A stretch of DNA of 55,194 nt from NCBI GenBank assembly GCA_042571305.1, contig JBHPHS010000002.1, forward strand, positions 1 through 55,194. Reading direction: 5' to 3'. Within the stretch, counting starts at the first letter, position 1. Every line of letters starts with the position of its first letter. Below are positions 22,765-52,605 of the stretch, piece after piece. Origin of the DNA: Patescibacteria group bacterium. Its GTDB lineage: Bacteria; Patescibacteriota; Microgenomatia; UBA8517. Position numbers and translations under genes: made by a program. Under the pieces are notes generated by a model. It had not been told where the DNA came from, searched no databases, and saw only the letters and a list, made by a program, of their open reading frames with translations.

Positions 22765-23282
22765 TAATACTAATAGATGCAAGGCTATACGGCCCTGAGC
22801 ATACAGGAAACGGTAGGTATACCATGAATTTGATTTCTGAACTAACCAAATTAGATAAAAAGAACAAGTATTTACTTCTTCTTAGAAAAAAATACTATAA
22901 AAAACTGAAGCTTCCACCAAATTGGACTAAGATCTTAGCTGATTTTAAGCACTATAGCCTTACTGAGCAGATCAAGTTGCCTTTTATTATAAATAAATCT
23001 AAACCCGATCTGGTTCATTTTCCGCATTTTAATATTCCCATTTTTTATTTTGGGAAATATATTGTGACAATACATGATATGACTATGCATAAATTTAGAG
23101 GAAAAGATGCAACAACCAGGAAACTTCCATTATATCAATTGTGGAGGTTGGGATATTATCTTTCCTTTGCGAAAGCGGTTTATGGGTCAAAAAGAATTAT
23201 TGTTCCAAGTGAAGCAGTTAAGCAGGAGATATTAAGTTTTTACAAAGTAAATCAAGGAAAAGTCAAAGTAGTTTATGAATAA
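22761..23282 (+). CDS. GT4 glycosyltransferase, N-terminal Rossmann half only (split gene)
   Basis: 173 aa (MIILIDARLYGPEHTGNGRYTMNL...) ending at VKVVYE, exactly where GT4 enzymes pass from the acceptor domain to the donor domain. Confidence 0.7.
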   Translation: MIILIDARLYGPEHTGNGRYTMNLISELTKLDKKNKYLLLLRKKYYKKLKLPPNWTKILADFKHYSLTEQIKLPFIINKSKPDLVHFPHFNIPIFYFGKYIVTIHDMTMHKFRGKDATTRKLPLYQLWRLGYYLSFAKAVYGSKRIIVPSEAVKQEILSFYKVNQGKVKVVYE

Positions 23283-23838
23283 GAAAAGCACAGGTAAATA
23301 TTTTCTTTATGTCGGTAATGCCTATCCTCATAAAAATCTGAACAGATTGGTTGAGGCGATAGTTTTATTGAATAAAGAATCAAACGAAAAGATATTGTTA
23401 AAGATTGTTTCCGCAAGGGGTGTTTTTACAAAAAGACTTCTTGGTTTGGTTGATAGGCTAGAAGCAAACGAATTTGTTGAGCTGTTGGGGTTTGTTAGTG
23501 ACAAAGACCTAGAAAAATTATATAAAAATGCCTTAGCTTTTGTGTTTCCATCACTTTCAGAAGGTTTTGGTCTTCCTGGGGTTGAAGCAATCACTGCAAA
23601 GACTCCATTATTAGCTTCAGATATTCCGGTTTTTAAAGAAGTTTATAAAGATAATGCAACATATTTTAACCCTCTTGATTTTTCAGCAATAGAAAGAACG
23701 ATGAGGGATGTATTTAATATGCCAAACAGCCAAAGAGAAGAAATGGTTAAAAAAGCATCAAAGTTTATTGAAAGATATTCATGGGCTAAAATGGCTAAAG
23801 AAACCTTGAAAATATATGAAAGTTGCACTCGTTTATGA
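23275..23838 (+). CDS. GT4 glycosyltransferase, C-terminal (donor-binding) half only (split gene)
   Basis: 187 aa starting MNKKSTGKYFLYVGNAYPHKN and carrying SEGFGLPGVEAITAKTPLLASD. It overlaps the N-half ORF by 8 nt in a different frame. Confidence 0.75.
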   Translation: MNKKSTGKYFLYVGNAYPHKNLNRLVEAIVLLNKESNEKILLKIVSARGVFTKRLLGLVDRLEANEFVELLGFVSDKDLEKLYKNALAFVFPSLSEGFGLPGVEAITAKTPLLASDIPVFKEVYKDNATYFNPLDFSAIERTMRDVFNMPNSQREEMVKKASKFIERYSWAKMAKETLKIYESCTRL

Positions 23839-24922
23839 CAGAGTAAATAAGTGGGGAGGAGCAGAAAGGGTTCTTCTTACCCTTCATCAGATGTTTCCTG
23901 ATGCTCCCTTATACACTTCAGTTTGTGATGAAAAAAAAGCTCCTTGGGCAAAAGTATTTCCTAAAATCTACACCTCTTTTTTACAAAAAATTCCTTTCGC
24001 AAAATCAAATCATGAGTTTCTTGGAACCTTCATGCCTTTAGCTTTCGAACTTTTTAATTTTGATAAATATGATTTGGTTATTTCGGTAACATCCGAAGCT
24101 GCTAAGGGAATAATTACAAAACCACAAACAAAGCACATTTGCTACTGCCTTACACCTACGAGATACCTTTGGAGTGGATACAGCTTTTATTTTAGAAACC
24201 CAATTCTTAAGTTTTTTGCTTTCCCTGTAATACTCTATTTAAGAAACTGGGACAAGATTGCAGCACAAAGACCGGACGTTATGCTTGCTATTTCTAACAC
24301 CGTACAGGGCAGAATTAAGAAATACTATAATCGGGAATCGCAAATAATATTTCCACCCGTAGAAACACTACGCACAGGACAAGTTAAGAAAAACAAAGGA
24401 AATTACTACCTGGTTGTTAGCAGACTGGTTGCCTATAAGAATGTTGACTTAGCAATAAAGGTATTTAATCGATTGAGGTATTCGCTATATGTTGTAGGTA
24501 AAGGTTCGCAGGAAAACAAATTAAAACAAATGGCAAGTTATAACATCAAATTTTTTAGTGAGGTGTCAGAAGATAAATTAATTAATCTTTATTCAGGAGC
24601 TAGAGCATTGATTATGCCTCAAGAGGAAGACTTTGGAATTACCAGCCTTGAAGCCCAAGGTCTTGGTGTTCCGGTTATTGCATATAAAAAAGGTGGAGTG
24701 CTTGATAGTGTGGTTGATGGCAGAACTGGAGTGTTTTTCAACAAGCAAACTGAAGCAGATTTGAAAGGTGCGATTGCAAAATTTGAAAAAATGAGCTTTA
24801 ATCTTATGTACCTGGTTAAAAATGCGGAAAAGTTTTCCAAAGAAACATTTAAAAAACAACTACAAGGAACACTTGTACGTATTAATTTTGGCTGGAGGAG
24901 GAGGAACAAGGCTCTGGCCTAA
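23816..24922 (+). CDS. GT4 family glycosyltransferase
   Basis: MKVALVYDRVNKWGGAERVL start and EDFGITSLEAQGLGVPVIAYKKGG motif. Confidence 0.85.
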   Translation: MKVALVYDRVNKWGGAERVLLTLHQMFPDAPLYTSVCDEKKAPWAKVFPKIYTSFLQKIPFAKSNHEFLGTFMPLAFELFNFDKYDLVISVTSEAAKGIITKPQTKHICYCLTPTRYLWSGYSFYFRNPILKFFAFPVILYLRNWDKIAAQRPDVMLAISNTVQGRIKKYYNRESQIIFPPVETLRTGQVKKNKGNYYLVVSRLVAYKNVDLAIKVFNRLRYSLYVVGKGSQENKLKQMASYNIKFFSEVSEDKLINLYSGARALIMPQEEDFGITSLEAQGLGVPVIAYKKGGVLDSVVDGRTGVFFNKQTEADLKGAIAKFEKMSFNLMYLVKNAEKFSKETFKKQLQGTLVRINFGWRRRNKALA

Positions 24923-25964
24923 GTCAAGAAACGAAACTCCAAAACAATTTCTTGATCTTTTTGGTGGAGAAACATTAACTCAAATTACCGCAAGGAGGTT
25001 CAGTAATATTCTTCCATGGGAGAGAATATTTTGTGTCACTGTTTCCCAAGCCTATAAAAAAGAGATTCTTAAGGAGGTTCCGTTGTTTTTACCCAGCAAT
25101 ATTATTGTTGAACCAGTTCGAAGAGAAACAGCTCCAGCGCATGGGATAGGTGCTGTTCACATATATAAAAGAGACCCAGAAGCTGTAATTATTACTGAGG
25201 CAGCTGATAGGTTGGTAAAACCGGTAAGAAGATATTTAAAGACTTTGCAAACCGCAGCTGAGGTGGCATTTAACAAAAAAGTTTTGATATCCCTTGGTGT
25301 TGAGCCACGCTATCCACATACAGGACTAGGTCATATTAAAAGAGGGGAGAAGTGGGCAAGAGAAGCAAACCTAAACTTTTATAAGGTGGATAAATTTATT
25401 GAAAAACCCAGTCTTGAGCTTGCTAAGAAATATACCACGTCAGGTAACTATTATTGGAATGCTGGGCAATATGTTTGGAGAGCGGACTCACTTCTTGAAG
25501 CATTTTCGAAATATTCCCCGCAAATTAAAAAGTCTTTGGATATTATCTACAAAGCGATAGGAAGCAAGAATGAACAAAAGATTGTCGCCGAGCAATATAA
25601 GAAAATGTCTAAAATTGCTATAGACTATGCGGTTAGTGAAAAAGCAAAAAACCTATATGTTGTTCCTGGTGATTTTTTTTGGACAGATATTGGAGATTGG
25701 AAAGAGGTGTGGGAGAATTCAAAGAAGGACGATTTAGGTAACGTTCTTATCGATGGAAAGGAAAAAGGAGGAAGAGTAATAAATATTGACACATCCGATG
25801 CTTTGATACACACCAATGGAAGAATGGTTGCGATTGTTGATGTGGATAATATTGTAATTGTCGATACAAAGGATGCACTTTTGGTTTGTAGCAAGTCTCG
25901 TGCACAGAACGTTAAAAAGATAGTTGAGAGCCTAAAAGAAGAAAAGCTGAAAGAGTATCTGTGA
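24873..25964 (+). CDS. manC: Mannose-1-phosphate guanylyltransferase (nucleotidyltransferase domain type)
   Basis: YVLILAGGGGTRLWPKSRNETPKQF and WTDIGDWKEVW motifs. The only in-frame ATG is at 24822. A TTG at 24873 gives the canonical N-terminus (M)YVLILAGGGG, so the start is ambiguous. Confidence 0.8.
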   Translation: MYVLILAGGGGTRLWPKSRNETPKQFLDLFGGETLTQITARRFSNILPWERIFCVTVSQAYKKEILKEVPLFLPSNIIVEPVRRETAPAHGIGAVHIYKRDPEAVIITEAADRLVKPVRRYLKTLQTAAEVAFNKKVLISLGVEPRYPHTGLGHIKRGEKWAREANLNFYKVDKFIEKPSLELAKKYTTSGNYYWNAGQYVWRADSLLEAFSKYSPQIKKSLDIIYKAIGSKNEQKIVAEQYKKMSKIAIDYAVSEKAKNLYVVPGDFFWTDIGDWKEVWENSKKDDLGNVLIDGKEKGGRVINIDTSDALIHTNGRMVAIVDVDNIVIVDTKDALLVCSKSRAQNVKKIVESLKEEKLKEYL

Positions 25965-38209: not shown

Positions 38210-39487
38210 ATGGCTAAATTTATAATTAAGGGAGGCAAGGCACTTGAGGGGAGGGTGAAGCTTTCAGGCAACAAAAATGCTGCTCTTAAACTCATTCCTG
38301 CCGCACTTTTGTCAGATAAACCCTCTACTTTTACTAATGTTCCTGACATTTTGGATGTTTCCGTGATACTTGAAATAATTAATAAATTAGGAGTTGGTGT
38401 GGAACAAAAAGATAACACTGTTATCATTGATCCTTCCACTATTAAATCCAGTGAACCAGATAGCGCACTTTGTGCTAAAATTCGTGCCTCAGTTGTTTTA
38501 GCTGCACCTCTTTTGGCTAGATTTGGCAAAACCACAATAACTCCACCCGGAGGAGACCAGATTGGAGATAGACTTTTAGAAACTCATTTTGGTTTGATGC
38601 AGAAAATGGGGGTTGAGATTAAAAGGGAAGATGGGAGGTACTTTCTTTCTTGGAAGAAAAAAGGACCAAGCGATATTTTTCTTGATGAATCTTCTGTCAC
38701 TGCAACAGAGATGGGTTTGATGCTTGCTTCAAGTATAAACCATGAAACAAAAATTGAAGACGCTGCGGCTGAACCCCATGTAGTGGATTTGGCTAATTAC
38801 TTGCAAAAGATGGGGGCCACCATTCATGGAGCGGGAACGGGTAATTTAGTAATTAAAGGGAATGGTAAATTAGTGGGGTGTGAGCACAGGGTTATTCCTG
38901 ACCATATTGAAGGAGGAACCTTTGCCATTGCTGCAGCTATTACACAAGGGAGAATAACCATCGGGGATTTTCAAGCCGATAATTACAAGATGATTTTAAG
39001 TTACCTTTCTGACATGGGAGTCAAATATAAAATCGGCAAAAACACACTTGAGGTGTTTCCTTCCAAACTTAAGGTAAAAAGCAAAAGAAGAGAGTTTCAG
39101 ACACGTCCCTGGCCGGGTTTTCCTACAGATTTGATGAGCCCGTTTATCGTTCTGGCAACCCAGTGTGAAGGAACTGTACTTTGCCATGACTGGATGTATG
39201 AGTGGAGAATATTTTTTGTCGATGATCTAAAAAGCATGGGAGCGAAGATATTTATAGCTGACCCACACAGAGTAATTATAAGTGGACCAACCAAGCTTTT
39301 GGCAGATAGGATTTATTGCAAAGATATCCGAGCGGGTATATCTATGATTTTGGCGGCACTTGTAGCCGAAGGAACAAGTGAAATTGAAAATATTGAAGTA
39401 GCACAAAGAGGGTATGAAAAGATTGAGGAGAGACTAATGAATTTGGGAGCCGACATTAAAATAGTGGACGATGACAAAGGGAATTGA
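38210..39487 (+). CDS. murA: UDP-N-acetylglucosamine 1-carboxyvinyltransferase MurA (Asp in place of the fosfomycin-target Cys)
   Basis: It aligns end to end with E. coli MurA from memory (SGNKNAAL, IPDHIEGGTF, DIRAGISMILAAL, RGYEKIEERL). The active-site loop is PPGGDQIGDR versus E. coli LPGGCTIGAR. Confidence 0.95.
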   Translation: MAKFIIKGGKALEGRVKLSGNKNAALKLIPAALLSDKPSTFTNVPDILDVSVILEIINKLGVGVEQKDNTVIIDPSTIKSSEPDSALCAKIRASVVLAAPLLARFGKTTITPPGGDQIGDRLLETHFGLMQKMGVEIKREDGRYFLSWKKKGPSDIFLDESSVTATEMGLMLASSINHETKIEDAAAEPHVVDLANYLQKMGATIHGAGTGNLVIKGNGKLVGCEHRVIPDHIEGGTFAIAAAITQGRITIGDFQADNYKMILSYLSDMGVKYKIGKNTLEVFPSKLKVKSKRREFQTRPWPGFPTDLMSPFIVLATQCEGTVLCHDWMYEWRIFFVDDLKSMGAKIFIADPHRVIISGPTKLLADRIYCKDIRAGISMILAALVAEGTSEIENIEVAQRGYEKIEERLMNLGADIKIVDDDKGN

Positions 39488-41432
39488 ATCAGACTCCAGA
39501 AAGGTTTTGCCCGGTTTTACCTTCGTAGCTATACGGGGAATAACTCACGATGGGCACAACTTTATTAAAGAAGCACTAAACAATGGGGCTACAAAAATTG
39601 TAGGTGAGAAAAATAGACCTTCCTGGCTTCCTGATAGGATTGAGTATTTAGAAGTAAATGATTCTCGTGAAGCGTTAGGTAAACTAGCTTCAGATTTTTA
39701 TGACAACCCTTCAAAGAAATTAACACTAATAGGAGTAACCGGTACAAAAGGCAAAACCACTACAGCTCATTTGATTTATCATATCTTAACCAGCCTCGGA
39801 CAAAAGGTTGGTTTAGTTTCATCAATTTCAGTTCCGGGCCTGCATGTAACAACTCCTGATGTAGTTTTGTTTCATAAAATGCTTAAACAGATGGTTGATA
39901 AGGGGTGTAAATATGCCGTAATTGAAGTTAGCTCCCACGGAATTGATCAGAAAAGAATCGCTGGGGCAAAATTTGATGTTGGGGTTTTAACCAATATTGC
40001 TTCCGAGCATCTTGATTATCACAAAAACTTCTCAGAGTATAAAAATGCAAAAATGTCATTTATAAATTCAACAAAAATAAAGATATATGCACCAAAAACT
40101 ACAAAACTGAATATTTTACCTGGAGAGTTTAACAATCTTAATGCTGAAGCTGCTTTAAAAACAGTAAAAGCTTTAGGTTTTAATTTTAAAAAAGCAAAGG
40201 TTTCTGTTTGTTCGTTTGAATTACCTGAAGGCAGACTACAGGAAATAAAAAATAGCCTAGGTATAAAAATTATCATTGATTTTGCCCACACCCCCGATTC
40301 TCTTAATGCTGTTCTTACCCACTTAAAGGAGGTAACCAAAAACAAACTAATTGTTGTGTTTGGATGTGCGGGAGAAAGAGACAGTAAGAAGCGCTCTAAG
40401 ATGGGTAGAATATCAACACAAATTGCAGATTTATCTATATTTACGGCAGAGGATCCAAGAAGCGAGAGAGTCTTTGATATTTTAAAGACCATGAAATCCA
40501 AAGCCTTAAAAGGTACGTTTGTTGAAATTGCGGAAAGGGCTGAAGCGATTGCATATGGACTATCAATTGTTAAAAAAGGAGACACACTTGCGGTATTGGG
40601 AAAAGGGCATGAAAAAAGTATGGCATATAAAGGCTATGAACACCCATGGAGCGACAAAGAACTAATTATGAGCTTACTTAACGCAAAAGATAATACCGCA
40701 GTTATTGTTTTAGCAGCAGGAAAAGGAACAAGAATGAAAAATAGTAAACCTAAGGTGCTGCGTGAGATATGTGCTCGTCCAATGATTTCCTATACTCTTG
40801 AAAGTTTACGCAAAGCTGGTTTTAGCGAAATCGTGGTTGTTGTTTCTTATAAGAAGGATGTGGTTTTAAGAAGGGTCAAAGGAGCAATTAAAGCTGCGGT
40901 TCAGAAAAATTCTAAGGGTGGTACTGCGGATGCTGCAAAGGCGGGTCTTTTCGAAGTTTCAAAAAACGCAACAACAGTCGTTGTAATTAATGGGGATGAT
41001 AGTGCTTTTTATAAACCAGATACGATTAATGAGGTTGTTGAAACACATTGTAAAACCAAATCTAGCTTGACCTTTGTAAGTTTAGAAAAAGACAATCCCC
41101 ACGGCTTGGGTAGAGTTGTTAGGGATAATAAAGGAAACCTTCTTACAATTGTTGAGGAAAAAGATGCAACTGATACACAAAGAAAAATTAAGGAGATAAA
41201 TGACGGTCTTTATGTTTTTAAAAGAAAATGGCTTGAGGCAAATATTAAGAAGGTTAAATTAAGTCCCCAGGGAGAGTACTATTTAGTGGATTTGGTCAAA
41301 ATAGCACTTTCTCAGAAAGAGAAAGTTGTTGTTTATAAACTTAAAGATTCTAATCAGTGGCAAGGTATCAATACTCCCGAACAACTTTTAGAAGCTCAAA
41401 AAAAGATGAAAAAAAGGTTAGGTTATGAATAG
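39471..41432 (+). CDS. murE: Fusion protein: MurE (UDP-MurNAc-L-Ala-D-Glu:diamino acid ligase) plus the GlmU-type N-terminal uridyltransferase domain
   Basis: The MurE part carries SDSRKVLPGFTFVAIRG, GVTGTKGKTTT, DFAHTPDSL, GCAGERD and EDPR. From about 40698 the sequence is AVIVLAAGKGTRMKNSKPKVL...IVEEKDATDTQRKIKEINDGL...PQGEYYLVDLV, which closely matches E. coli GlmU residues ~5-230. No hexapeptide acetyltransferase domain follows. Confidence 0.85.
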   Translation: MTKGIESDSRKVLPGFTFVAIRGITHDGHNFIKEALNNGATKIVGEKNRPSWLPDRIEYLEVNDSREALGKLASDFYDNPSKKLTLIGVTGTKGKTTTAHLIYHILTSLGQKVGLVSSISVPGLHVTTPDVVLFHKMLKQMVDKGCKYAVIEVSSHGIDQKRIAGAKFDVGVLTNIASEHLDYHKNFSEYKNAKMSFINSTKIKIYAPKTTKLNILPGEFNNLNAEAALKTVKALGFNFKKAKVSVCSFELPEGRLQEIKNSLGIKIIIDFAHTPDSLNAVLTHLKEVTKNKLIVVFGCAGERDSKKRSKMGRISTQIADLSIFTAEDPRSERVFDILKTMKSKALKGTFVEIAERAEAIAYGLSIVKKGDTLAVLGKGHEKSMAYKGYEHPWSDKELIMSLLNAKDNTAVIVLAAGKGTRMKNSKPKVLREICARPMISYTLESLRKAGFSEIVVVVSYKKDVVLRRVKGAIKAAVQKNSKGGTADAAKAGLFEVSKNATTVVVINGDDSAFYKPDTINEVVETHCKTKSSLTFVSLEKDNPHGLGRVVRDNKGNLLTIVEEKDATDTQRKIKEINDGLYVFKRKWLEANIKKVKLSPQGEYYLVDLVKIALSQKEKVVVYKLKDSNQWQGINTPEQLLEAQKKMKKRLGYE

Positions 41433-42420
41433 AGATAAAATCGTAACATTTGGTGGAGGAACTGGGCAATTTCATCTTTTATGTGGATTAAGAGAAATCT
41501 ATGATACAAGTTTAATAACCGCTGTTGCTGGTTCCTGGGATAGTGGAGGAAGTTCAGGCAGGTTAAGAACTGAACTTGGTGTACTGCCACCAGGAGATAT
41601 CAGGCGCTGTATGTTAGCTTTGATGGAGGATGAGAAACAAAGACAAATTGCTCAAAGACTTTTTGATGACAGACTGGAGGAAATTGCAGGACCTCTTAAG
41701 GGTCACTCTTTAGGTAATCTAATAACAGCAAGGCTTGACCATATCTATAGAGGCCAAGATAGAGGAATTGAGGCAGAAAGGTGTCTTTTTAGGGTGAAAG
41801 CAAGGGTCTTACCAGTAAGCTTAACCGAATTGCAGTTGGTTGCCGAAACTGCAAAAGGCACCAAAGTTACAGGGGAAACAAACATAGATTTTCGTGTAAA
41901 GGATAAAAATTTTAATCCAAAAGACAGGATCGTTCGCATATATTTTGATACTCGTGCTGATCCAAACCCAGAGGTAATAAAGGCAGTAGAAGAAGCTGAA
42001 AAGATAATTTTTGCACCAGGAGATCTTTACACAAGTGTTTTGCCACATCTTTTGGTTGATGAGGTAAAAGAAGCAATAATTGCATCAAAAGCAAAGTTGA
42101 TTTTTGTACTTAATTTGGCAACCAAAGCAGGTGAGACTGATTCATACAAAGCATCAGATTTTCTAGAAAGTTTCCTTTTTTATCTTGATGCACCAGGAAG
42201 ACTTAACTATTTCTTGGTTAATGAAAATCATTTTGATCGTGAGATTATTAAAATTTATAAAGGTGAAGGTCAAAACCTAGTTGAAGTTGATACAGTCAAA
42301 ATTAAAAAACTTGAACCAAAATTAAAAATAGTTAAAAAACCAATTTCCGTTTATCTTAAGAAAGAACATTTGCTGCGACACGACCCTATAAAATTAGCAA
42401 AAGCTATTCTGAAGCTTTAG
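41425..42420 (+). CDS. yvcK: YvcK/CofD-family (UPF0052) protein
   Basis: IVTFGGGTGQFHLLCGLRE...AVAGSWDSGGSSGRLRTELGVLPPGDIRRC is the family signature. Confidence 0.8.
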   Translation: MNRDKIVTFGGGTGQFHLLCGLREIYDTSLITAVAGSWDSGGSSGRLRTELGVLPPGDIRRCMLALMEDEKQRQIAQRLFDDRLEEIAGPLKGHSLGNLITARLDHIYRGQDRGIEAERCLFRVKARVLPVSLTELQLVAETAKGTKVTGETNIDFRVKDKNFNPKDRIVRIYFDTRADPNPEVIKAVEEAEKIIFAPGDLYTSVLPHLLVDEVKEAIIASKAKLIFVLNLATKAGETDSYKASDFLESFLFYLDAPGRLNYFLVNENHFDREIIKIYKGEGQNLVEVDTVKIKKLEPKLKIVKKPISVYLKKEHLLRHDPIKLAKAILKL

Positions 42421-43087
42421 AGGCTGCTTGATTGTTTAGATAATGACCGATTAATCCGGGTGTGCGGGCTATAATAAATACCGCGTTTCCAAGCCTTGCA
42501 GGCCAGTCGAAAGTGCACAAAATTGAAGCAATTACACCGTCGATGTTAACAGGAATAGGTTTGCCTTTGGCCAGACTGATTTCTTTTTCAATTTGTTTAG
42601 CAATATTAATATAAAAATCATCCATATTTTCCTTTTGTGCCAGATTAAAGATAAATTCTGCTCTTGGATCAATGGTGTAAATTCTGTGTCCAAGCCCAGG
42701 TATTTTACGGTCTTGTTTTAGACACTCATTAACCATTTTTTTAATGTTTAAATTATCTTTTTTGATTTTATAAAAAAGCTCCATTGCAGGTTTTATTGCC
42801 CCACCGTGATCATCGTTTATTTGTAAAATTGCCTGAGAAAGTGATACCGAAATACTTTTTGCTTTTTTAGCATCTTTTATAATTTCGATTGCTGAAGGGG
42901 TTTGACTTCCATGATCAATAGAAATATTTAAAATGGTTTCAAATAGCTTAAGTTGGGATTTGTTAGGTTTTTTTTCAGAAAGAAGCAGATAAATCATGTA
43001 GGCAAAGTTTTTTTTGGAAACAAGCTTTAGTAAAGAAGTGTTACCAAAGTACGGTTTATTATTTTTATGTGTTACAACGGTTGACAT
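42404..43087 (-). CDS. Citryl-CoA lyase-like protein (citrate-synthase-fold module of ATP-citrate lyase)
   Basis: SIDHGSQTPSA...INDDHGGAIKPAMELFYK, PGLGHRIYTIDPRAEF, PVNIDGVIASIL and FIIARTPGLIGHYLNNQ line up with the human ACLY C-terminal module (TADHGPAVSG...GDRFGGALDAAAKMFSK, GIGHRVKSINNPDMRV, LNVDGLIGVAF, FVLGRSMGFIGHYLDQK) as recalled. Confidence 0.75.
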   Translation of the reverse strand: MSTVVTHKNNKPYFGNTSLLKLVSKKNFAYMIYLLLSEKKPNKSQLKLFETILNISIDHGSQTPSAIEIIKDAKKAKSISVSLSQAILQINDDHGGAIKPAMELFYKIKKDNLNIKKMVNECLKQDRKIPGLGHRIYTIDPRAEFIFNLAQKENMDDFYINIAKQIEKEISLAKGKPIPVNIDGVIASILCTFDWPARLGNAVFIIARTPGLIGHYLNNQAASKASE

Positions 43088-43989
43088 TGGATTGCTTTTT
43101 TAATTAACGATGGTATTTTATCAAAGCTCTCGGCCACCAATACTCCAGCTTTTTTTAATATCCTTCTTTTTTCGGAAGGGATTCCTTTCCTTCCTTCTAT
43201 TATCGCACCGGCGTGACCAAATTGCACATCCGAAGGAAGACTAGCTGTAAATTCTCCGGCAATGAATGCAATAACGGGTTTTTTAATTAAACCTTTTTCT
43301 ACAAAAGAAGCAACTCTTTCTTCATATGTTCCTCCCAATTCTCCAAAGATTACAGATGCTTTGGTTTTGACATCTTTCTCAAGTGCCAGAAGAAAATCCA
43401 CAAAATCTGTACAGATTATTCTATCTCCTCCTATTCCAACGGCCCAAGAAACCCCAAGACCATGATTCTTAAGAAGAAGCCCTACCTCTGACGTCATTCC
43501 TCCAGATTTGGAAATTACTGCAATATTTCCATCTGCGTATACCCTTTCAGGTGACAAACCACCGATTGCCCCGATTTTTAGTTTCCTGTGAGGTGCAATT
43601 AAACCAACTGAGCTTGGTCCGATTACATTTGCACCTATCTTTTGGGAGTAAGCATAAATGTAGGCAGCGTCTTTAACTGGAACCTTTTCTGCACCAATTA
43701 AAATAAATTTAATTCCAGCATCAAGTGCTTCGATTGTGGCGTCTTTTGTAAACAATGGTGGTACAAACTGTACGGAGGCATCGATTGGACCTAACTTTTT
43801 TAGGACCTCGTCAACGGTATTAAAAATTGGAACTCCGTGTAGATTTTGTCCTCCTTTGCCGGGGGTAACCCCCGCAATAATTTTTGTCCCATAATTTAAT
43901 ATTCCGACAAGTGAGGATCTTCCCTCGGACCCTGTTATACCTTGACCGATTATTTTTGAATTATTTGGAAGTTTCATATTTTTTTGCAA
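43072..43989 (-). CDS. ACL/citryl-CoA synthetase alpha-like subunit (CoA-binding plus CoA-ligase domains, phosphohistidine loop)
   Basis: IIGQGITGSEG...GVTPGKGG, SKSGGMTSEV (ACL-type GGM, versus SucD SRSGTLTYE) and DVQFGHAGAIIEG...KKAGVLVAESFDKIPSLI (compare ACLY VQFGHAGA...KEAGVFVPRSFDELGEII). Confidence 0.8.
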   Translation of the reverse strand: MQKNMKLPNNSKIIGQGITGSEGRSSLVGILNYGTKIIAGVTPGKGGQNLHGVPIFNTVDEVLKKLGPIDASVQFVPPLFTKDATIEALDAGIKFILIGAEKVPVKDAAYIYAYSQKIGANVIGPSSVGLIAPHRKLKIGAIGGLSPERVYADGNIAVISKSGGMTSEVGLLLKNHGLGVSWAVGIGGDRIICTDFVDFLLALEKDVKTKASVIFGELGGTYEERVASFVEKGLIKKPVIAFIAGEFTASLPSDVQFGHAGAIIEGRKGIPSEKRRILKKAGVLVAESFDKIPSLIKKAIQCQPL

Positions 43990-45106
43990 GTTTTGCCATT
44001 ATTTTGGCAGATTCAGTTATTGAAATTTCTTGACCGTAAAGATGAAGATTAAAATCTTTAACTTTCTTAAGCATCTCAAATGCTTCCTTATCTCTTGGAC
44101 CACCCCTTCTTATCAGAATCGGATATTTTGGTTTAGGTTTAACCTTTCTTAAAGCTTGAAGAAAGCCCGAGAGCGTTTCGTAAATATCGGTAAAATTTGC
44201 AACAGCGCCAACCACCCAAAGACCTTTAAGATATTTTTTGGAAAGAACAATTTCGGTTAATTTTTCTACCTTTTCTCTTGGTGGATTGCCAGAATATTCG
44301 GTGTAGTTTGCTGGTTTTCCACCGGATGCAATTATGGCGTCCATAGCGGTAAGAGAAGCTCCTCCACCAGAGGCAAGTACGGCAATATTTCCAGGAAGAT
44401 CGAAAAATGTAGATCCAGCTGATCCTCGATAGTCATTTTGATCAATATTTTTTGCTCTTTTTTCTCTTATTGTAGGAGTATATCCTGGAGTAGACCTAAG
44501 CTTATAATTCCAGTTTTTGTGTCTGGCAATTGCCGTATCATCAATCTTTAATTTTGCATCAACAGCAACAAGTTCTCCTTCTTTTGTTTCCACAAAAGGA
44601 TTAATTTCTAAAAGTAGTAGATCATTATCAATAAATATTTTTATTAATTTAGGTAGTAGTTTGTAAATCTTTTCAGGTACGTACTTTTGAGGAACTTTTA
44701 ATGAAAGGGTGTTGAATGGAATTGATTTACTAATCCTTTTTTCAATACCTTCTCCTCCGTTTGTGGAAAATACTATCACAGGGCTTCGATAATCCGTATC
44801 ATAGGAAATAGAAATATAGTATTCTTGTTTTATATCTATCTTCTCTTCAACCAAAACCTTACTGACTTTTTCTCCGTGAATTGTCAATGCAAAGATGTTT
44901 GATAGCTTCTTTTTTAAATCCTTATTAGAATTTATTTGGATAATTCCTCCCGCTTTTTTCCTTTTACCTGTTAGTACTTGTGCTTTAAGAATAAATGGGA
45001 GTTTAAGGTTGATATTTTGCTTTGGAGAGCTAATTAATTGAGATTTAGGAATATCTATACCGCCTTCTGATAATATTTTCTTTCCCTCGAATTCATATAG
45101 AATCAT
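43961..45106 (-). CDS. ACL/citryl-CoA synthetase beta-like subunit (ATP-grasp)
   Basis: MILYEFEGKKILSEGGI start (compare SucC MNLHEYQAK). PANYTEYSGNPPREKV resembles the ACL-type ANYGEYSGAP motif rather than SucC ANFLDVGGGA. The start is placed at ATG 45106; the ORF-track start at 45115 is a GTG three codons upstream. Confidence 0.8.
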   Translation of the reverse strand: MILYEFEGKKILSEGGIDIPKSQLISSPKQNINLKLPFILKAQVLTGKRKKAGGIIQINSNKDLKKKLSNIFALTIHGEKVSKVLVEEKIDIKQEYYISISYDTDYRSPVIVFSTNGGEGIEKRISKSIPFNTLSLKVPQKYVPEKIYKLLPKLIKIFIDNDLLLLEINPFVETKEGELVAVDAKLKIDDTAIARHKNWNYKLRSTPGYTPTIREKRAKNIDQNDYRGSAGSTFFDLPGNIAVLASGGGASLTAMDAIIASGGKPANYTEYSGNPPREKVEKLTEIVLSKKYLKGLWVVGAVANFTDIYETLSGFLQALRKVKPKPKYPILIRRGGPRDKEAFEMLKKVKDFNLHLYGQEISITESAKIMAKLAKKYETSK

Positions 45107-45179
45107 ATAGAACACAATTTACAATAAGGACAGCTTTCTTACAAGTAAGTATTTACGCGATAATAATAGCCTCATGAGG

Positions 45180-45191: not shown

Positions 45192-46475
45192 ATGATTAAG
45201 AATATTCACTTTATGGGCATAGGAGGTAGTGGGGTTGCTGGGGTAGCCGCTCTTGCTTCACAAATGGGTTTTGGAGTTACAGGATGTGATTTGGAAAAAA
45301 ATACAGCTTATTCTAAAAACGTAGTTCAGGGACACAGCAGGGATCACCTTAGGGGAGTTGATTTGGTTGTAGCAAGCCCTGCGGTTTATTTTCAAAACTC
45401 CAATCACCCTGAATTTTTGGAAGCTAAAAAACAAGGGAAGCTAATAACCTGGCAGGAGTTTTTAGGGGATTATCTAACAAAAGGTAAAAAAGTAATTTGT
45501 GTTGCCGGAACGCATGGAAAATCTACAACAACAGCAATGGTGGCAAAACTGTTAATTGATGCAAAGTTTGACCCTTTGGCTTTGGTTGGTGCAGGGGTTT
45601 TTAAGTGGCGAGGAAATAGCAGGTTTGGAAAAGGTGAATATTTTGTTATCGAAGCAGATGAGTTTTTTGATAGTTTTTTAAATTACCACCCAGAGATAAT
45701 AATTTTAAACAATATTGAGTTTGACCATCCTGATTATTTTAAAAGTGAAACCCAGCTTTTTAATTCTTATAAGAGCTTTATAGAAAACTTTATTGGAGAA
45801 AAGGTTTTGATTGTCAATTCAGATGATCTTGGTGTTAATAAACTTCTAAAAATGATTAATTTAGACGATTTTAAAATCATCAAATATAGTCCAAAGAAAG
45901 AATGTTTGGGGCTTAGGCTAAAAGTTTTCGGAAAACATAATATTGCAAATGCTTTGGGTGTAAAAGCTTTAGGAAAGTATCTTGGAATAAGTAAACAAAT
46001 TATAAATGATTCTCTTTCGACGTTTGAAGGAATTGAAAGAAGGATGCAGCTTTTAGGAATGACCAAAAAAGGTGTTTTGATATACGATGATTATGCTCAT
46101 CATCCAACCGCAATTTCTGCAACACTGCAGGCGCTTAGAGAAAAATACCCTAACAAACGTATTTGGGCAATTGTTGAGGCACATGGTTATGAAAGAACAA
46201 ATACGCTATTAGGTTCATATAAAGGTGTGTTTTCTCAAGTAGACAAAGTTATTGTAGGTCCGATATTTAAAGCAAGAGATAAAAAGACATTTGGTGTAAC
46301 ACCTGAGAAAATAGTCAAAGCTTCCAAACACAAAAATGCATTAGCAGCTAATTCATTTAAACAAATTCAATTAATCTTGAACAAAGAAGTAAAGAGTGAT
46401 GATATTATTTTGGTTATGGGTGCAGGAAAAAGCTATTTATGGTCAAGAAAACTTTTAAAGAACTTACAACAATAA
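45192..46475 (+). CDS. murC: UDP-N-acetylmuramate--L-alanine ligase MurC
   Basis: IHFMGIGGSGVAGVAALA, VAGTHGKSTTTAM and DDYAHHP motifs. An alternative upstream ATG lies at 45174. Confidence 0.9.
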   Translation: MIKNIHFMGIGGSGVAGVAALASQMGFGVTGCDLEKNTAYSKNVVQGHSRDHLRGVDLVVASPAVYFQNSNHPEFLEAKKQGKLITWQEFLGDYLTKGKKVICVAGTHGKSTTTAMVAKLLIDAKFDPLALVGAGVFKWRGNSRFGKGEYFVIEADEFFDSFLNYHPEIIILNNIEFDHPDYFKSETQLFNSYKSFIENFIGEKVLIVNSDDLGVNKLLKMINLDDFKIIKYSPKKECLGLRLKVFGKHNIANALGVKALGKYLGISKQIINDSLSTFEGIERRMQLLGMTKKGVLIYDDYAHHPTAISATLQALREKYPNKRIWAIVEAHGYERTNTLLGSYKGVFSQVDKVIVGPIFKARDKKTFGVTPEKIVKASKHKNALAANSFKQIQLILNKEVKSDDIILVMGAGKSYLWSRKLLKNLQQ

Positions 46476-48631
46476 GAACAGGTGGAGAGATTAGCTATTT
46501 TAAGCCGGTTAAAAACAAAACTGAGCTTAAGAAGGCAGTATCTTATGCCAAAGAAAAAAACTTACCAATTTTTATACTGGGTGGTGGTAGTGATATTTTA
46601 GCATCAGATAGGAATTTTAACGGAGTTGCTATAAAGTGTCTAAATAATAAAATTTACATTAAGGGTAATGTAATTAAAGCCGAAGCAGGGGTAATCTGGG
46701 ATAATTTAGTTTGTGAAGCGATATCTGATAATCTACAAGGAATAGAAAAGCTTTCAGGAATTCCAGGAACAGTTGGTGCAGCACCTGTCCAAAATATCGG
46801 AGCATATGGTCAGGAGCTTTCCGATGTTTTTGTAAGCTTAACCGCCTATGATATCAAAAATGAGAAATTTGTTACGTTTAAAAAGAAAGACTGTAAATTT
46901 GGTTACAGAGAAAGTGTATTTAAGAAAAAATCACATTGGCAAAAATATATTATTTGGGAAGTAACTATTAAGCTTAAAATAAATAATAAACTTGGTCTTT
47001 TTATAATCCGAAATCACATTCTAAATACAAGAGACAAAAAGATTGACGATTGGAAAAAGGTTCCTAATGCAGGTTCGTTTTTCAAAAACCCAATTGTAGA
47101 TGAAATCAAACTTAAATATTTGCTGAAAAAATATCCAAATATGCCGTTTTTTAAGCATGGTAATAAATTTAAACTCTCTGCTGGTTGGTTTGTTGAAAAA
47201 GCAGGATGGAAAGGAAAATCTATGGGAGAGGCTATGGTTTCTGGTAAACATGCACTAATAATTACAAATCCTAAAGGTAAAGCTTTTGCAAAAGAAATAA
47301 AATATCTTGCAGACAAAGTAGCTATAGATGTATATAAAAAGTTTAATATCAAGCTTACCCCTGAGGTGCAGCTTATTAATTTTGTCTGCATCGAAAAGAA
47401 AAAGAATGTCGCTATTTTAGGTTATGGAATAGAAGGTAAAGATGTAAAAAAGTTTATTAAGAGTCGTGGGCTTAAGGTAGATATATTAGATCGGAAGTAT
47501 GATAAATATTACTTAAAGGATTTAGACAAATATGACACCATTATCCGTTCACCTGGAGTTTATCGATATTCACCGGAACTTGTTAAGGCAGAAAAAGCGG
47601 GGGTTGAAATAACAAGTGCAATCAAGATATTTTTTGATTTGTGCCCGGGAAAGATTATCGGTGTAACCGGTACAAAAGGCAAAGGAACAACTTCAACTTT
47701 AATTTATGAGATATTAAAAAACGCCGGTTATAATGTTTATTTAGCCGGAAATATTGGCAAACCATACCTTGAGCTTCTTCCTAGATTAACTAAAAAATCC
47801 TGGGTTGTTATGGAAATGTCATCATTTCAGCTAATAGATATGCAAAAAAGTCCAGTAATTTCTGTTGTTTTAAACATTACATCTGATCACCTTGATTGGC
47901 ACAAAAGTCAAAAAGAGTATGTTGAAGCAAAGAAAAACATTGTCAAATACCAATTAAAAAATGATTGGGCGGTCTTGAATAAAGACTATAAAAAATCCGA
48001 AAGCTTTGAAAAGTATACGAAAGCAAGGGTAATTTTCTTTTCCAAAAACAAATTGGAAAATGAGTATAGAAAAGATCTACTTCTTAGGGGTGTGCATAAT
48101 CTAGAAAATATTGCAGCAGCAGTTGCTGTTGGGAAAATATTGAAAATCAAAAGTGAAATTATGCTTGATACTGTAAGAAGCTTCAAAGGGCTTGAGCATA
48201 GATTGGAGCTTGTCAGACGTGTTAATGGAGTCACTTTTTATAATGACTCTTTTGCAACAGGACCACAACCAACCATTGCTGCAATTAAGTCATTTACCGA
48301 GCCAATTACGATTATTTTGGGTGGAAGTAAAAAAGGATTGAATTATAAAGAACTTGGTAAGGCAATAAAAATGACAAAAAACATTAAAAATATTATTTTA
48401 ATTGGTACAACAGCTAGTAAAATTGTAAAAAGCTTAGGTAATAAAGAAACTGATATTAAAATATACAATTTAGGTTTTACGCCAATGAAAGAAATTGTGG
48501 CAAAAGCATATCATGTGTCTAAAAAAGGAAGTGTAGTTATATTATCTCCTGCTTCAGCATCTTTTGATATGTTTGAAAATTACAAGGATCGAGGCAACCA
48601 GTTTAAAAAAGCTGTCCTAGCTTTGAAATAA
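46439..48631 (+). CDS. Fusion protein: MurB (UDP-N-acetylenolpyruvoylglucosamine reductase) plus MurD (D-glutamate-adding ligase)
   Basis: The MurB part carries TTIRTGGE, GGGSDIL, IPGTVGAAPVQNIGAYG, YRESVFK, NAGSFFKNP, SAGWFVEKAGWKG and PEVQLINF. After about 47390 comes MurD: VAILGYGIEGKD, GVTGTKGKGTTST, EMSSFQL, NITSDHLDWH, GLEHRLE, NDSFATGP and SPASASFDMFENYKDRGNQF. It is a single frame with no stop or in-frame ATG at the junction. Confidence 0.85.
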   Translation: MVKKTFKELTTIRTGGEISYFKPVKNKTELKKAVSYAKEKNLPIFILGGGSDILASDRNFNGVAIKCLNNKIYIKGNVIKAEAGVIWDNLVCEAISDNLQGIEKLSGIPGTVGAAPVQNIGAYGQELSDVFVSLTAYDIKNEKFVTFKKKDCKFGYRESVFKKKSHWQKYIIWEVTIKLKINNKLGLFIIRNHILNTRDKKIDDWKKVPNAGSFFKNPIVDEIKLKYLLKKYPNMPFFKHGNKFKLSAGWFVEKAGWKGKSMGEAMVSGKHALIITNPKGKAFAKEIKYLADKVAIDVYKKFNIKLTPEVQLINFVCIEKKKNVAILGYGIEGKDVKKFIKSRGLKVDILDRKYDKYYLKDLDKYDTIIRSPGVYRYSPELVKAEKAGVEITSAIKIFFDLCPGKIIGVTGTKGKGTTSTLIYEILKNAGYNVYLAGNIGKPYLELLPRLTKKSWVVMEMSSFQLIDMQKSPVISVVLNITSDHLDWHKSQKEYVEAKKNIVKYQLKNDWAVLNKDYKKSESFEKYTKARVIFFSKNKLENEYRKDLLLRGVHNLENIAAAVAVGKILKIKSEIMLDTVRSFKGLEHRLELVRRVNGVTFYNDSFATGPQPTIAAIKSFTEPITIILGGSKKGLNYKELGKAIKMTKNIKNIILIGTTASKIVKSLGNKETDIKIYNLGFTPMKEIVAKAYHVSKKGSVVILSPASASFDMFENYKDRGNQFKKAVLALK

Positions 48632-50330: not shown

Positions 50331-51457
50331 ATATAAAAGCTGGGTAGAGGTGTCAAGAGGTGCAATTATTGCAAACTATCTTCAATTTCAAAAAATCGTT
50401 GGTAAAAATACCTTGGTTGTTCCTGTTGTTAAAGCCAATGCTTATGGACATGGAATGAAAGAGGTAGTTACCATCCTTAAGGATAAAACCAACTTTTTTT
50501 GCGGTTGATAATGTGGACGAAGCTTTGCAAATCAAAGAAATTGATAGCGAACTCAAAGTTTTGGTTCTTGGTTATACAACCTTGGAAAATATCAAAAAGG
50601 CAGTTGATATTGATATTTCATTAGTTGTTTATAATACAGAAACTCTAAAAAAGATTGTCTCATTAGAGGCTAATAAACCAACAAAGGTTCATTTAAAGAT
50701 TGAAACGGGACTTAACAGGCAGGGGGTAAGAAAAAGGCAACTCATCAAACTTATACAGTTTATTAAAAAACATAAGGATAAAATACACCTTGAGGGAGTT
50801 TCTACACACTTTGCTGATATAGAAGACACGCTTGATTCAACATTTGCTATGAAGCAGCTTGAGGAGTTTAAAAAATCCATTAGCTTTATAAAAAACAAAG
50901 GTTTCAAACCTGCATTAATTCATTGTGCTGCTTCAGCAGGTATGCTTCTTTATAGCAAATCGCACTTTTCAATGGTTCGTACTGGCATAAGTTTGTATGG
51001 TTTATGGCCATCTGCCGAAACACGAATATCAATGCTTGTAAGAAACAAAAAAATATCGCTAAGACCGGTAGGTGTATGGAAAAGTGTTGTTGCTCAAATA
51101 AAGTCTATTGATGTAGGGGAATCCGTAAGCTATGGTAGAACTTGGTTTGCTGCCAGAAAATCAAAGATAGCAATTGTTCCGGTTGGATATTCCGATGGAT
51201 TTGACAGAAAATTATCTAATATCGGAAGAGTAATAATAAACGGAGCTTATGCAGATGTTGTGGGTAGAGTGGCAATGAATATGATTATGGTTGATGTTAC
51301 AGACATTAAGGGTGTTTCCCTAGAGGATGAGGTTGTCTTACTGGGAAAGTTTAAGGGGCTTGAGGTTTCTGCTAATGAATGGGCTAAAAAACTTGCTACA
51401 ATTAATTATGAAGTGGTTTCAAGAATCAGCACTTCCCTTCCCAGAATTATAATATGA
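50311..51457 (+). pseudogene. alr: Alanine racemase interrupted by a 1-nt frameshift at a T7 tract (ORFs 50311-50508 and 50513-51457)
   Basis: ORF 1 carries the PLP-lysine motif VVKANAYGHG and ends ...KTNFFCG*. Removing one T from the run at 50494-50500 reads ...KTNFFAVDNVDEALQIKE..., the canonical Alr continuation. ORF 2 carries SYGRTW and VSRIS. Confidence 0.85.
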
Positions 51458-52605
51458 AAAATATTAATCCTGTTGTGCGTTGGTGGGTAACTCCGGAACT
51501 GCCATACCATGATATTTATGAACCCCCACTATTGAAAAATAAAAGTAGAATTGCTTTTTATATTCATCTTTTTTCACACTGGGTTATACATCCTATTAAA
51601 AGACGTTTGGCTAGGTGGTATTTAAGATTTTTGCAAAAGACAACCGATATTAAGGTTATTGGGGTGACTGGTAGTGCGGGTAAGAGTATTACAGTTCAGA
51701 TGATTGCATCAATTCTTAAATGTAAAGGCACAACTTTATGTACTCTTTCTAGTGTTGATTCCGTATATAACATACCAAATACAATTCTGAGATGTTTACC
51801 TAACGTTAAGTACTTAGTACTTGAAATGTCGGTTGAGTATCCGGGGGAAATGGATTATTACCTTTGGCTTGCTAAACCTGACATAGGAGTAATTACCAAC
51901 ATTTTTCCAACCCATACAGAATTTTTAAAAGATGTACACGGGGTATTAAAAGAGAAAGGGAAGTTGGTAAGAGCTCTTGAGAAAAACGATTTTGCTGTTT
52001 TAAATAGGGATAATACAGCCTTAAAAGAAATTGCTAATAATTTAAAAACTAGGGTTGTTTGGTTTGATTCAAATGTCGATTTAGATATTCAAAACGCCAA
52101 CGCAGCAATAGCGGTTGCAAAGCTTTTAGGTATTGGTAAGGACGAAATAAAAAAAGGCCTTGAGACATATAAGAGACCGGAACATAGATTCAAAGTAATA
52201 AAGCATAAATCTAAAGCGGTGATAGTTGATGATTCCTACAACAGTAATCCCGAGGCTCTACTTTCGGTACTTAATAAATTTAATAAACTTGCTGGTCATG
52301 GTACAAAGATAGCTGTATTAGGTGATATGTTGGAGCTAGGAAAAATTTCCAGTCGAGAACACAAAAGGGTAGGGAGGGAAATTGCCAAGTCTGGTTTTGA
52401 TGTGGTTATTGGGGTGGGAGATATTATAAAAGACCTACTGGATGAAGTAAGTAAAAAATCAAGCAACACAAGAACTTATCACTTTTCCAAACAGGAAGAA
52501 GTTTTACCCTTGTTAAAAACGTATTTAAAGAAAAACACCTTTGTACTTATTAAGGGTTCAAGGTCAATTGGTCTTGATAAAGTAGTTGACGGTCTGATTA
52601 AATAG
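51454..52605 (+). CDS. murF: UDP-MurNAc-tripeptide--D-alanyl-D-alanine ligase MurF with a non-canonical N-terminus
   Basis: GVTGSAGKSIT, DDSYNSNP, LGDMLELG and KGSRS motifs. The first ~65 aa do not resemble the usual MurF N-domain. Confidence 0.8.
   Translation: MKNINPVVRWWVTPELPYHDIYEPPLLKNKSRIAFYIHLFSHWVIHPIKRRLARWYLRFLQKTTDIKVIGVTGSAGKSITVQMIASILKCKGTTLCTLSSVDSVYNIPNTILRCLPNVKYLVLEMSVEYPGEMDYYLWLAKPDIGVITNIFPTHTEFLKDVHGVLKEKGKLVRALEKNDFAVLNRDNTALKEIANNLKTRVVWFDSNVDLDIQNANAAIAVAKLLGIGKDEIKKGLETYKRPEHRFKVIKHKSKAVIVDDSYNSNPEALLSVLNKFNKLAGHGTKIAVLGDMLELGKISSREHKRVGREIAKSGFDVVIGVGDIIKDLLDEVSKKSSNTRTYHFSKQEEVLPLLKTYLKKNTFVLIKGSRSIGLDKVVDGLIK

Follow-up and report, generated by a model that had tools for sequence, protein, structure and literature searches.

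Known relatives of the fused gene

The route to UDP-N-acetylglucosamine (UDP-GlcNAc) through the bifunctional enzyme GlmU is held to be near-universal in bacteria and is an antibiotic target, and many Patescibacteria with reduced genomes are thought to depend on hosts. The subject of this analysis is an open reading frame (ORF) of 653 amino acids plus stop (39471..41432, forward strand) on contig JBHPHS010000002.1 of a Patescibacteria group bacterium (assembly GCA_042571305.1), in which the peptidoglycan ligase MurE is fused to the uridyltransferase domain of GlmU; the whole contig of 55,194 bp was studied and is called the window below. The fusion, written MurE::GlmU(N), is probably a genuine bifunctional enzyme of peptidoglycan precursor synthesis, MurE plus a short GlmU, of Woesebacteria-type Patescibacteria within the candidate phyla radiation (CPR). 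Its C-terminal domain is homologous over the full length to the N-terminal domain of bifunctional GlmU (Escherichia coli b3730; PDB 1hv9, 1g97), with the same LAAGKGTRM signature, catalytic and sugar-binding residues and fold (root-mean-square deviation, rmsd, 1.7-2.3 Å), but bifunctional GlmU also possesses a left-handed beta-helix and a long helical arm, whereas the fusion protein is without the first and most of the second and carries the domain at the C-terminus of another enzyme. E. coli GlmU truncations (PDB 1fwy, Tr331; Pompeo et al. 2001) are credited with an N-domain that folds and acts as an autonomous uridyltransferase without trimer formation; those are engineered fragments, whereas the fusion is a natural conserved gene. 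A review (PMC10087520) that cites Pompeo et al. (2001) states that each of the two sites of GlmU is active on its own and that the trimer is not required for uridyl transfer, so that activity is to be expected of an N-domain that stands alone or is fused. Uridyltransferase-only GlmU homologs occur in a few NagU-containing RefSeq genomes, such as that of Polystyrenella longa, and imply some further acetyltransferase (Fong et al. 2026, bioRxiv 10.64898/2026.06.23.733835). Like the domain of the fusion they lack the acetyltransferase half, but they are stand-alone proteins, whereas the domain described here is linked to MurE and comes from a large Patescibacteria family. Arch_glmU (TIGR03992; Sulfolobus tokodaii ST0452, PDB 2ggo/5z09) belongs to the same nucleotidyltransferase superfamily, and an enzyme of this type fills the position after murE in sister Microgenomates; it and the domain of the fusion are paralogous alternatives, not one family.

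The other precedents are the natural Mur chimeras MurE-MurF (Bordetella pertussis, PDB 8f5d), MurC-Ddl, MurC-MurB, MurG-MurC, MurD-FtsW and MraY-MurG (PMC10214165). MurE::GlmU(N) likewise joins a Mur ligase head-to-tail, nearly without a linker, to a peptidoglycan enzyme that is its neighbor in the division and cell wall (dcw) cluster, and like MurG-MurC and MurC-Ddl it joins non-consecutive steps. It falls within the definition of a Mur chimera (Shirakawa et al. 2023), being a Mur ligase and another enzyme of the pathway in one dcw-encoded polypeptide, but a UDP-GlcNAc pyrophosphorylase is not a partner in any of the six chimeras of PMC10214165. That survey mentions neither GlmU nor Patescibacteria and left out sequences of unidentified species, and because of this exclusion metagenome-derived genomes of candidate phyla would drop out of it. 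No description of a MurE-GlmU fusion was found in the literature searched, which agrees with an earlier note on this DNA, made from the sequence alone, that knew of none, though hundreds of copies lie in public databases under generic names; the current labels 'MurE', 'Mur ligase family protein' and 'NTP transferase domain-containing protein' hide the second predicted activity. The fusion is rated here as a combination of known kinds (Mur chimeras and truncated GlmUs) that is genuine, widespread across a single clade and wrongly annotated, and that overturns no principle. It would be a seventh type of natural Mur chimera, tying the entry of nucleotide sugars to the stem-peptide ligases, and as such it bears on the debated cytoplasmic Mur complex. 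A large candidate-phylum clade would thereby split the two activities of GlmU and keep the uridyltransferase alone, welded to MurE.

The two halves of the protein

Translation of the ORF gives one stop only, at its end, and the remaining two frames are closed over 40500-40900. Pfam places Mur_ligase at residues 3-77, Mur_ligase_M at 89-205, Mur_ligase_C at 254-379 and NTP_transferase at 411-648, and the E-values of the two halves (1e-123 and 1e-62) exclude chance. AlphaFold2, supplied with an alignment of homologs, models the fused protein with a predicted local distance difference test score (pLDDT) of 91.2 and a predicted template modeling score (pTM) of 0.88. In this model the last MurE helix (395-403) leads nearly straight into the first GlmU strand (406-415), and the linker between the two, also delimited by the alignment of homologs, is about five residues long (AKDNT, residues 405-409; 40683..40697, forward strand, as are all features of the ORF given below). 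No single solved structure spanning both parts was found by Foldseek. The earlier note had described an uninterrupted ORF of 653 residues that joins MurE to a GlmU pyrophosphorylase domain without its beta-helix acetyltransferase half, and this description holds: profile hidden Markov models (HMMs), sequence matches to solved structures and the predicted fold agree on both identities, the motifs that it quoted (EDPR, LAAGKGTRM, PKVL, EEKDATDTQRKIKEIN and QGEYYLVDL) are all in the translation where it placed them, and the mapping by HMM and structure prediction that it suggested puts the end of MurE at about residue 404 and the start of the GlmU-type domain at 410.

The GlmU-type GlcNAc-1-phosphate (GlcNAc-1-P) uridyltransferase domain (residues 410-634; 40698..41372) is recognized by Pfam, NCBIfam, solved structures, alignment to E. 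coli GlmU and Foldseek. With the C-terminal 244 residues profiled alone against NCBIfam, the region 410-650 scores 212 bits against GlmU model PRK14354, compared with 120 bits for Arch_glmU, 81 for AglF, 64 for RmlA-long and 43 for MurU, so that the domain groups with GlmU and not, as the earlier note had allowed, with generic sugar-1-phosphate nucleotidyltransferases, families of which reach 120 bits at most. The cutoffs of Arch_glmU (TIGR03992, 292 bits, a type whose left-handed beta-helix, LbH, is missing here as well) and MurU (NF045761, 250 bits) are not reached, and the UDPGP family (eukaryote-like UAP1/NagU) is not among the Pfam matches of the ORF at E <= 0.01. Nor does the domain reach the cutoff of TIGR01173, the model of bifunctional GlmU (199.5-202.5 bits, cutoff 366.85), and its match ends at position 240, covering positions 2-240 only of models about 450 positions long (452 in TIGR01173); Pfam has no match to Hexapep or LbH families anywhere in the ORF. 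The protein stops 19 residues past N634, the equivalent of E. coli N227, within what is the long helical arm of GlmU, of which the C-terminal helix (residues 635-653; 41373..41429) is a remnant according to the E. coli alignment, the AlphaFold2 model and the homologs; no beta-helix follows. Because the beta-helix is absent and the cutoff for the whole protein is not reached, the fusion is best filed as 'MurE fused to a short GlmU' and not as GlmU, and because most of the helical arm has gone with the beta-helix, no trimer is expected.

The residues of the uridyltransferase site are retained. The GlmU half matches solved structures with E 6e-38, and Foldseek superposes it on Streptococcus pneumoniae GlmU with UDP-GlcNAc (1g97) at rmsd 1.7 Å over 246 columns. 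Alignment with E. coli GlmU, taken from NC_000913.3, shows that R18, K25, Q76, G81-T82, G104-D105, G140, E154, K156, N169, E195/Y197 and N227 are kept. Conservation was assessed over 32 aligned homologs, each sharing 59-70% identity with the query, among which R421, K428, D509, N577 and N634 (E. coli R18, K25, D105, N169 and N227) are invariant, as are the other catalytic positions of GlmU save K564 (K156), which is at least 90% conserved. The uridyltransferase signature L(X)2GXGTXM(X)4PK is found as LAAGKGTRMKNSKPK, comprising the nucleotide-binding LAAGKGTRM (residues 414-422, with R421; 40710..40736) and PKVL (427-430); further on are EEKDATDTQRKIKEIN (562-577) and QGEYYLVDL (600-608). N577 (41199..41201) corresponds to the Asn that binds the sugar 3'-OH, a position needed for full uridyltransferase activity (Fong et al. 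2026). With these residues, the C-terminal stretch of about 245 residues would act as a short GlmU, converting UTP and GlcNAc-1-P to UDP-GlcNAc and pyrophosphate.

The MurE half (residues 3 to about 404) scores 413 bits against the NCBIfam murE model TIGR01085 (cutoff 257) and 411 bits against the diaminopimelate (DAP)-type equivalog NF001126 (cutoff 373), and falls short of the Lys-type model NF010628 (243 bits, cutoff 536). It matches solved structures with E 2e-69, the best in PDB being Thermotoga maritima MurE (4bub), and Foldseek aligns it to E. coli (1e8c) and Staphylococcus aureus (4c12) MurE with target-normalized TM scores of 0.73-0.74 at 3.2 Å. The three-domain fold of a Mur ligase is present, with P-loop, catalytic Glu and His and the position of the carbamylated Lys. 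It consists of an N-terminal domain for UDP-MurNAc-peptide binding (residues 1-80; 39471..39710); a central ATP-binding domain (81-250; 39711..40220), confidently modeled by AlphaFold2, that contains the P-loop GVTGTKGKTTT (88-98; 39732..39764) and YKNAKMSF (190-197; 40038..40061), whose K194 corresponds to the Lys that is carbamylated in Mur ligases; and a C-terminal domain for amino-acid binding (251-404; 40221..40682), supported by Pfam and by the match to 4bub, with EDPR (327-330; 40449..40460) as the counterpart of DNPR/DDPR. The P-loop, E152, H180, K194, DFAHTP, GERD..KR and EDPR are invariant over the 32 homologs. In view of these domains, the first 404 or so residues would be a minimal MurE, catalyzing ATP-dependent ligation of a diamino third residue to UDP-MurNAc-L-Ala-D-Glu.

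Two statements of the earlier note about this half need qualification. MurE was called complete, which is right in that none of the three domains and no catalytic motif is missing, but its length is reduced: about 25 N-terminal residues of solved MurEs are absent (the 4bub alignment begins at residue 27), and the central domain is about 60 residues shorter, its Mur_ligase_M match covering only profile positions 1-117 of 200, with residues 203-217 (40077..40121) in place of about 62 T. maritima residues (4bub residues 228-289 have no counterpart). This deletion is a trait of the clade and not linked to fusion, because the unfused MurE (416 residues) of a Microgenomates metagenome-assembled genome (locus L006) is equally short. 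The Arg of EDPR was taken as a hint of a DAP-type substrate; the Arg is indeed kept and the DAP-type cutoff passed, but the Lys-adding MurE of T. maritima (4bub) aligns DDPR at the same place, so that the Arg is compatible with a DAP-type ligase but does not single one out.

The two predicted reactions are not consecutive, as MurA, MurB, MurC and MurD act between them, and for this reason a fusion of gene neighbors is preferred over a substrate channel. Fusion of adjacent genes would fix co-expression and 1:1 stoichiometry, and may also lend stability to a uridyltransferase domain that would otherwise be isolated, or anchor it to the Mur enzymes. Several observations weigh against a bifunctional enzyme of this kind. 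E. coli GlmU Y103 and H84 are replaced by Asn and Asp in the C-terminal domain, so that its sugar specificity could, judging from the aligned residues, differ in detail. A tblastn search of the 55-kb contig gave no GlmS, GlmU-type beta-helix or Arch_glmU-like gene, the search not having included GlmM. The missing central and N-terminal residues of MurE (about 60 and 25) mean that full ligase activity is assumed, and the pTM of 0.88 hints at fixed packing between the domains.

The first two of these points would be accommodated if the C-terminal domain acted on another sugar phosphate: MurNAc-1-P in a MurU-like salvage, GlcN-1-P with later acetylation of UDP-GlcN, Glc-1-P or GalNAc-1-P. A fusion with a Mur ligase would fit a route to UDP-MurNAc, no acetyltransferase was found nearby, both changes lie in the sugar pocket, and one relative (P0192) is joined to an APH-type kinase in the way of anomeric-kinase salvage pairs. 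Another substrate is nevertheless improbable, given the margin of the GlmU score (212 bits) over MurU (43), RmlA (64) and AglF (81) and the retention of all of the residues that hold GlcNAc (E154, N169, G140, T82 and N227), invariant in the 32 homologs; moreover, MurA and MurB, which need UDP-GlcNAc, are encoded in the window, and the neighboring YvcK is from a UDP-GlcNAc-binding family. The last two points could instead indicate that one half is regulatory or a scaffold, for example a GlmU domain that senses UDP-GlcNAc on behalf of MurE or a MurE that serves for docking, since the central domain of MurE is truncated, non-consecutive steps offer no obvious catalytic gain, and the pTM suggests a fixed mutual orientation. 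This is less probable still: the catalytic residues examined in both halves are invariant or nearly so among homologs of 59-70% identity, no second murE was found either in the window or in the regions flanking fusion-type dcw clusters (where the other Mur ligases are murC, murD and murF only), and the equally short, unfused MurE of L006 holds the place of murE within its dcw cluster, in a 14-kb locus that showed no second murE.

Conservation, gene order and the supply of GlcNAc-1-P

That a lost stop, or an indel made in sequencing or assembly, merged two neighboring genes in this contig is effectively refuted, even though a homopolymer frameshift affects alr in the same contig (T7, 50493-50499), by the identical single ORF in at least 120 clusters of independent assemblies, one of them a complete genome, by the shared length of the junction, and by the lack of a homopolymer or alternative open frame there. 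The fusion is a real conserved gene. A homolog search over 5.8 billion proteins returned 7087 homologs of the fused ORF, and the best 120 of the matches, clusters of 630-715 residues and 59-70% identity from NCBI, JGI, ENA and Logan, all have the Mur-ligase plus NTP_transferase architecture; the few named members among them are labeled Patescibacteria or Woesebacteria. Of the 32 aligned homologs, 31 share one junction length (...EHPWSD-x8-LN-x5-AVILAAGKG...), and every one of the 32 stops 18-25 residues past QGINTPEQL without a beta-helix. The fusion is called as a single ORF in the complete 1,078,985-bp Woesebacteria genome CP066686.1 (locus L083), as it is on two contigs 690 kb and 609 kb long. 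In the window no homopolymer occurs across 40640-40740, and the junction, for which the earlier note had asked whether one frame is genuine, is continuous and of fixed length in homologs from independent assemblies.

The window holds a Patescibacteria-style dcw cluster in the order MraZ, RsmH, a small protein, FtsI, MurA, MurE::GlmU(N), YvcK, three ATP-citrate-lyase-like genes on the opposite strand, MurC, MurB::MurD, a Glu-racemase-like protein, Ddl, Alr, MurF, MraY and FtsW. The start of the fusion overlaps by 17 nt with murA (38210..39487, forward strand; TIGR01072, 457 bits, cutoff 393), a consumer of UDP-GlcNAc, and its stop overlaps by 8 nt with a yvcK/glmR-like gene (41425..42420, forward strand; TIGR01826, 250 bits, cutoff 196) that passes the curated cutoff of the subfamily 'UDP-GlcNAc-binding protein YvcK'. 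Three neighbors are thus translationally coupled: a consumer of UDP-GlcNAc, its predicted maker (the C-terminal domain) and a protein from a family that binds UDP-GlcNAc. YvcK is also near the UDP-GlcNAc-forming gene in loci L006, L082, L083, L088 and L089. The position of the fusion between FtsI-MurA and MurC/B/D is repeated in eight further fusion loci (L002-L005, L085-L088), and in L083 YvcK, GlmS and a GNAT gene are interposed between MurA and the fusion. The contig scan that yielded L002-L005 used generic MurE motifs, and most of its 80 loci are ordinary MurE genes of Clostridia and other phyla, with fusions in these four only.

A survey of relatives for fused and separate genes, suggested by the earlier note, gave a mixed answer: the fusion recurs in many, but close syntenic relatives keep an unfused MurE and a separate GlmU-like gene. 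In L006 (whose MurE is 52% identical), L082 and L089 an unfused, equally short MurE is directly followed by a separate gene of about 400 codons for a nucleotidyltransferase with a beta-helix. The copies of this Arch_glmU-like gene in L006 and L019 score 263-273 bits against TIGR03992, just below the cutoff of 292, and the gene upstream of one Arch_glmU-like gene (P0273) encodes an unfused MurE. The order in L089 is MurA-YvcK-GlmS-MurE-ArchGlmU-HAD-MurC::MurB-MurD and that in L083 is MurA-YvcK-GlmS-(GNAT)-MurE::GlmU(N)-x-MurC::MurB-MurD, so that the two loci are collinear outside the slot downstream of murE; the fusion and the pair of MurE and Arch_glmU-like gene are alternative occupants of that one slot. 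In L019 (Chisholmbacteria) MurE is followed by an Arch_glmU-like gene and then by a stand-alone short GlmU of 248 residues (232 bits against GlmU), and loss of the middle gene from an order like this one (murE / Arch_glmU-like / short glmU) is a plausible route to the fusion. A small HAD-like gene with a DxDxT motif always follows the Arch_glmU-like gene (L006 5473-5907, L082 1866-2294, L089 9283-9768) and could encode a pyrophosphatase, a phosphatase or a phosphosugar mutase; tblastn found no homolog of these proteins in the window.

Loss of the acetyltransferase half is older than the fusion. When 1.84 billion cluster representatives were searched exhaustively by HMMER, with only the C-terminal domain as query, 640 matches at E <= 1e-30 were obtained, the best 150 of which were sorted into architectures by local phmmer. 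Stand-alone proteins of 200-350 residues account for 98 of these 150 nearest relatives, from which it follows that loss of the acetyltransferase half is a family trait and not tied to fusion; the named ones are from Curtissbacteria and 'Patescibacteria group'. The remainder comprise 13 fusions to a HAD-like domain related to the small HAD-like protein above (such as P0128, P0138, P0145, P0156, P0160 and P0186), eight MurE+GlmU(N) proteins (including P0126 and P0174 with a full-size MurE), two with the reverse order GlmU(N)+Mur ligase (P0132, P0136), 14 that bear a beta-helix, all ranked 83rd or lower, eight fragments and seven with other or unassigned extensions, P0192 among them. The stand-alone relatives and the variety of fusions indicate that short GlmU, widespread in Patescibacteria as a stand-alone protein of about 250 residues, predates the fusion and combines promiscuously with other domains. 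The GlmU(N)+APH-type kinase protein P0192 is possibly an anomeric-kinase salvage pair, and P0234 has the architecture GlmM plus full GlmU.

Because short GlmU is the uridyltransferase domain alone, its GlcNAc-1-P must come from another enzyme or from salvage. The acetylation may fall to a beta-helix enzyme encoded elsewhere in the genome or to a GNAT with GlcN-6-P or GlcN-1-P as its substrate, or GlcNAc may be salvaged instead. Queried by tblastn with E. coli GlmS, the C-terminal half of GlmU, Arch_glmU-like proteins and the small HAD-like proteins, the window gave no significant match apart from the hexapeptide stretch described below. To a distance of about 10 kb from the fusion, L002-L005 contain no Arch_glmU-like gene, the genes annotated by Pfam in L083 and L085-L088 include no beta-helix protein, and none of 16 fusion-bearing contigs longer than 100 kb, the complete genome included, is represented among the top 120 Arch_glmU-like homologs, a result that excludes close homologs only. 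The genes that might be proposed from their position or family were not convincing. The only hexapeptide protein of the window (15862-16464) is a WcaF-type polysaccharide O-acetyltransferase in a glycosyltransferase cluster, and its similarity to GlmU is limited to a generic hexapeptide stretch of 45 residues. An APH-family protein (8468-9244), considered as an anomeric GlcNAc kinase, has 22% identity to the kinase of P0192, a likeness at the level of the family only. A GNAT of 161 residues divergently adjoins the fusion in L083 (9496-9981, reverse strand), where it lies between GlmS and the fusion, and in L088 (10001-10468); the two are 48% identical to each other, and the family consists of six clusters only. 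As a GNA1-like enzyme it was rejected, its best match (E 0.0045) being to phosphinothricin acetyltransferases, without specific likeness to GNA1 structures, and it stands as a lead for a small subclade rather than a general answer.

It is possible, though doubtful, that fusion-type Woesebacteria are without any GlmU-type GlcN-1-P acetyltransferase, that they obtain GlcNAc-1-P by a route new to bacteria, and that the fusion arose by deletion of the Arch_glmU-like gene. Such a route could follow the eukaryote-like order, in which a GNAT would act on GlcN-6-P and a mutase and then short GlmU would complete the synthesis, or it could be an obligate salvage of GlcNAc from the host. If so, the fusion would mark a lineage-wide rewiring of UDP-GlcNAc synthesis. 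Genomes of the fusion type and of the Arch_glmU type form a natural comparison set for the supply of GlcNAc-1-P.

Other genes of the window

Within the dcw cluster, the three genes on the reverse strand (42404-45115) encode a citrate-synthase C-terminal-like protein (227 residues), a CoA_binding/Ligase_CoA protein (305 residues) and an ATP-grasp_2/Citrate_bind protein (384 residues). The trio resembles an ATP-citrate-lyase or citryl-CoA set and could generate acetyl-CoA; the same trio follows YvcK in L082, with the first two merged as one protein of 599 residues. A second fusion ORF of 730 residues (46439-48631, forward strand) joins MurB (FAD_binding_4 and MurB_C, residues 1 to about 315) to MurD (residues about 323-727; TIGR01087, 360 bits). 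It reads through in the window without a homopolymer at the junction, whereas in L085 and L004 a stop after ...INF is followed by a separate MurD start, and the state of MurC, MurB and MurD varies among relatives, with MurC and MurB fused in some and three separate genes in others. MurB-MurD is not in the chimera list of PMC10214165.

The alr gene (50331-51457, forward strand) is frameshifted at the T7 run mentioned above, and removal of one T restores the frame; the first 57 or so residues of Alr, including the motif VVKANAYGHG of the pyridoxal phosphate-binding lysine, are in another frame, ahead of the GTG at which the ORF is called. Either the homopolymer was misassembled or alr is a pseudogene, and the case calls for caution regarding the indel quality of the contig. 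MurF (51454-52605, forward strand) is short at 383 residues, with no N-terminal Mur_ligase match and 265 bits against TIGR01143 (cutoff 289); minimal Mur ligases (MurE and MurF) appear to be typical of the clade.

The window also holds a large surface-glycan cluster (3349-28652) that encodes a Wzx-like flippase, many GT2 and GT4 glycosyltransferases, three PMT_2-family proteins and a Wzy_C protein, together with the WcaF-like acetyltransferase and the APH-family protein described above, a methyltransferase, and Bac_transf and DUF4012 proteins. A ManC-like guanylyltransferase without a phosphomannose isomerase (PMI) domain (24822-25964) also belongs to this cluster. One GT4 glycosyltransferase (22761-23838, forward strand) is divided between two ORFs, a Glyco_transf_4 N-terminal half of 173 residues and a Glycos_transf_1 C-terminal half of 187 residues, which overlap at ATGAATAA; either the split is genuine or the gene has been disrupted.

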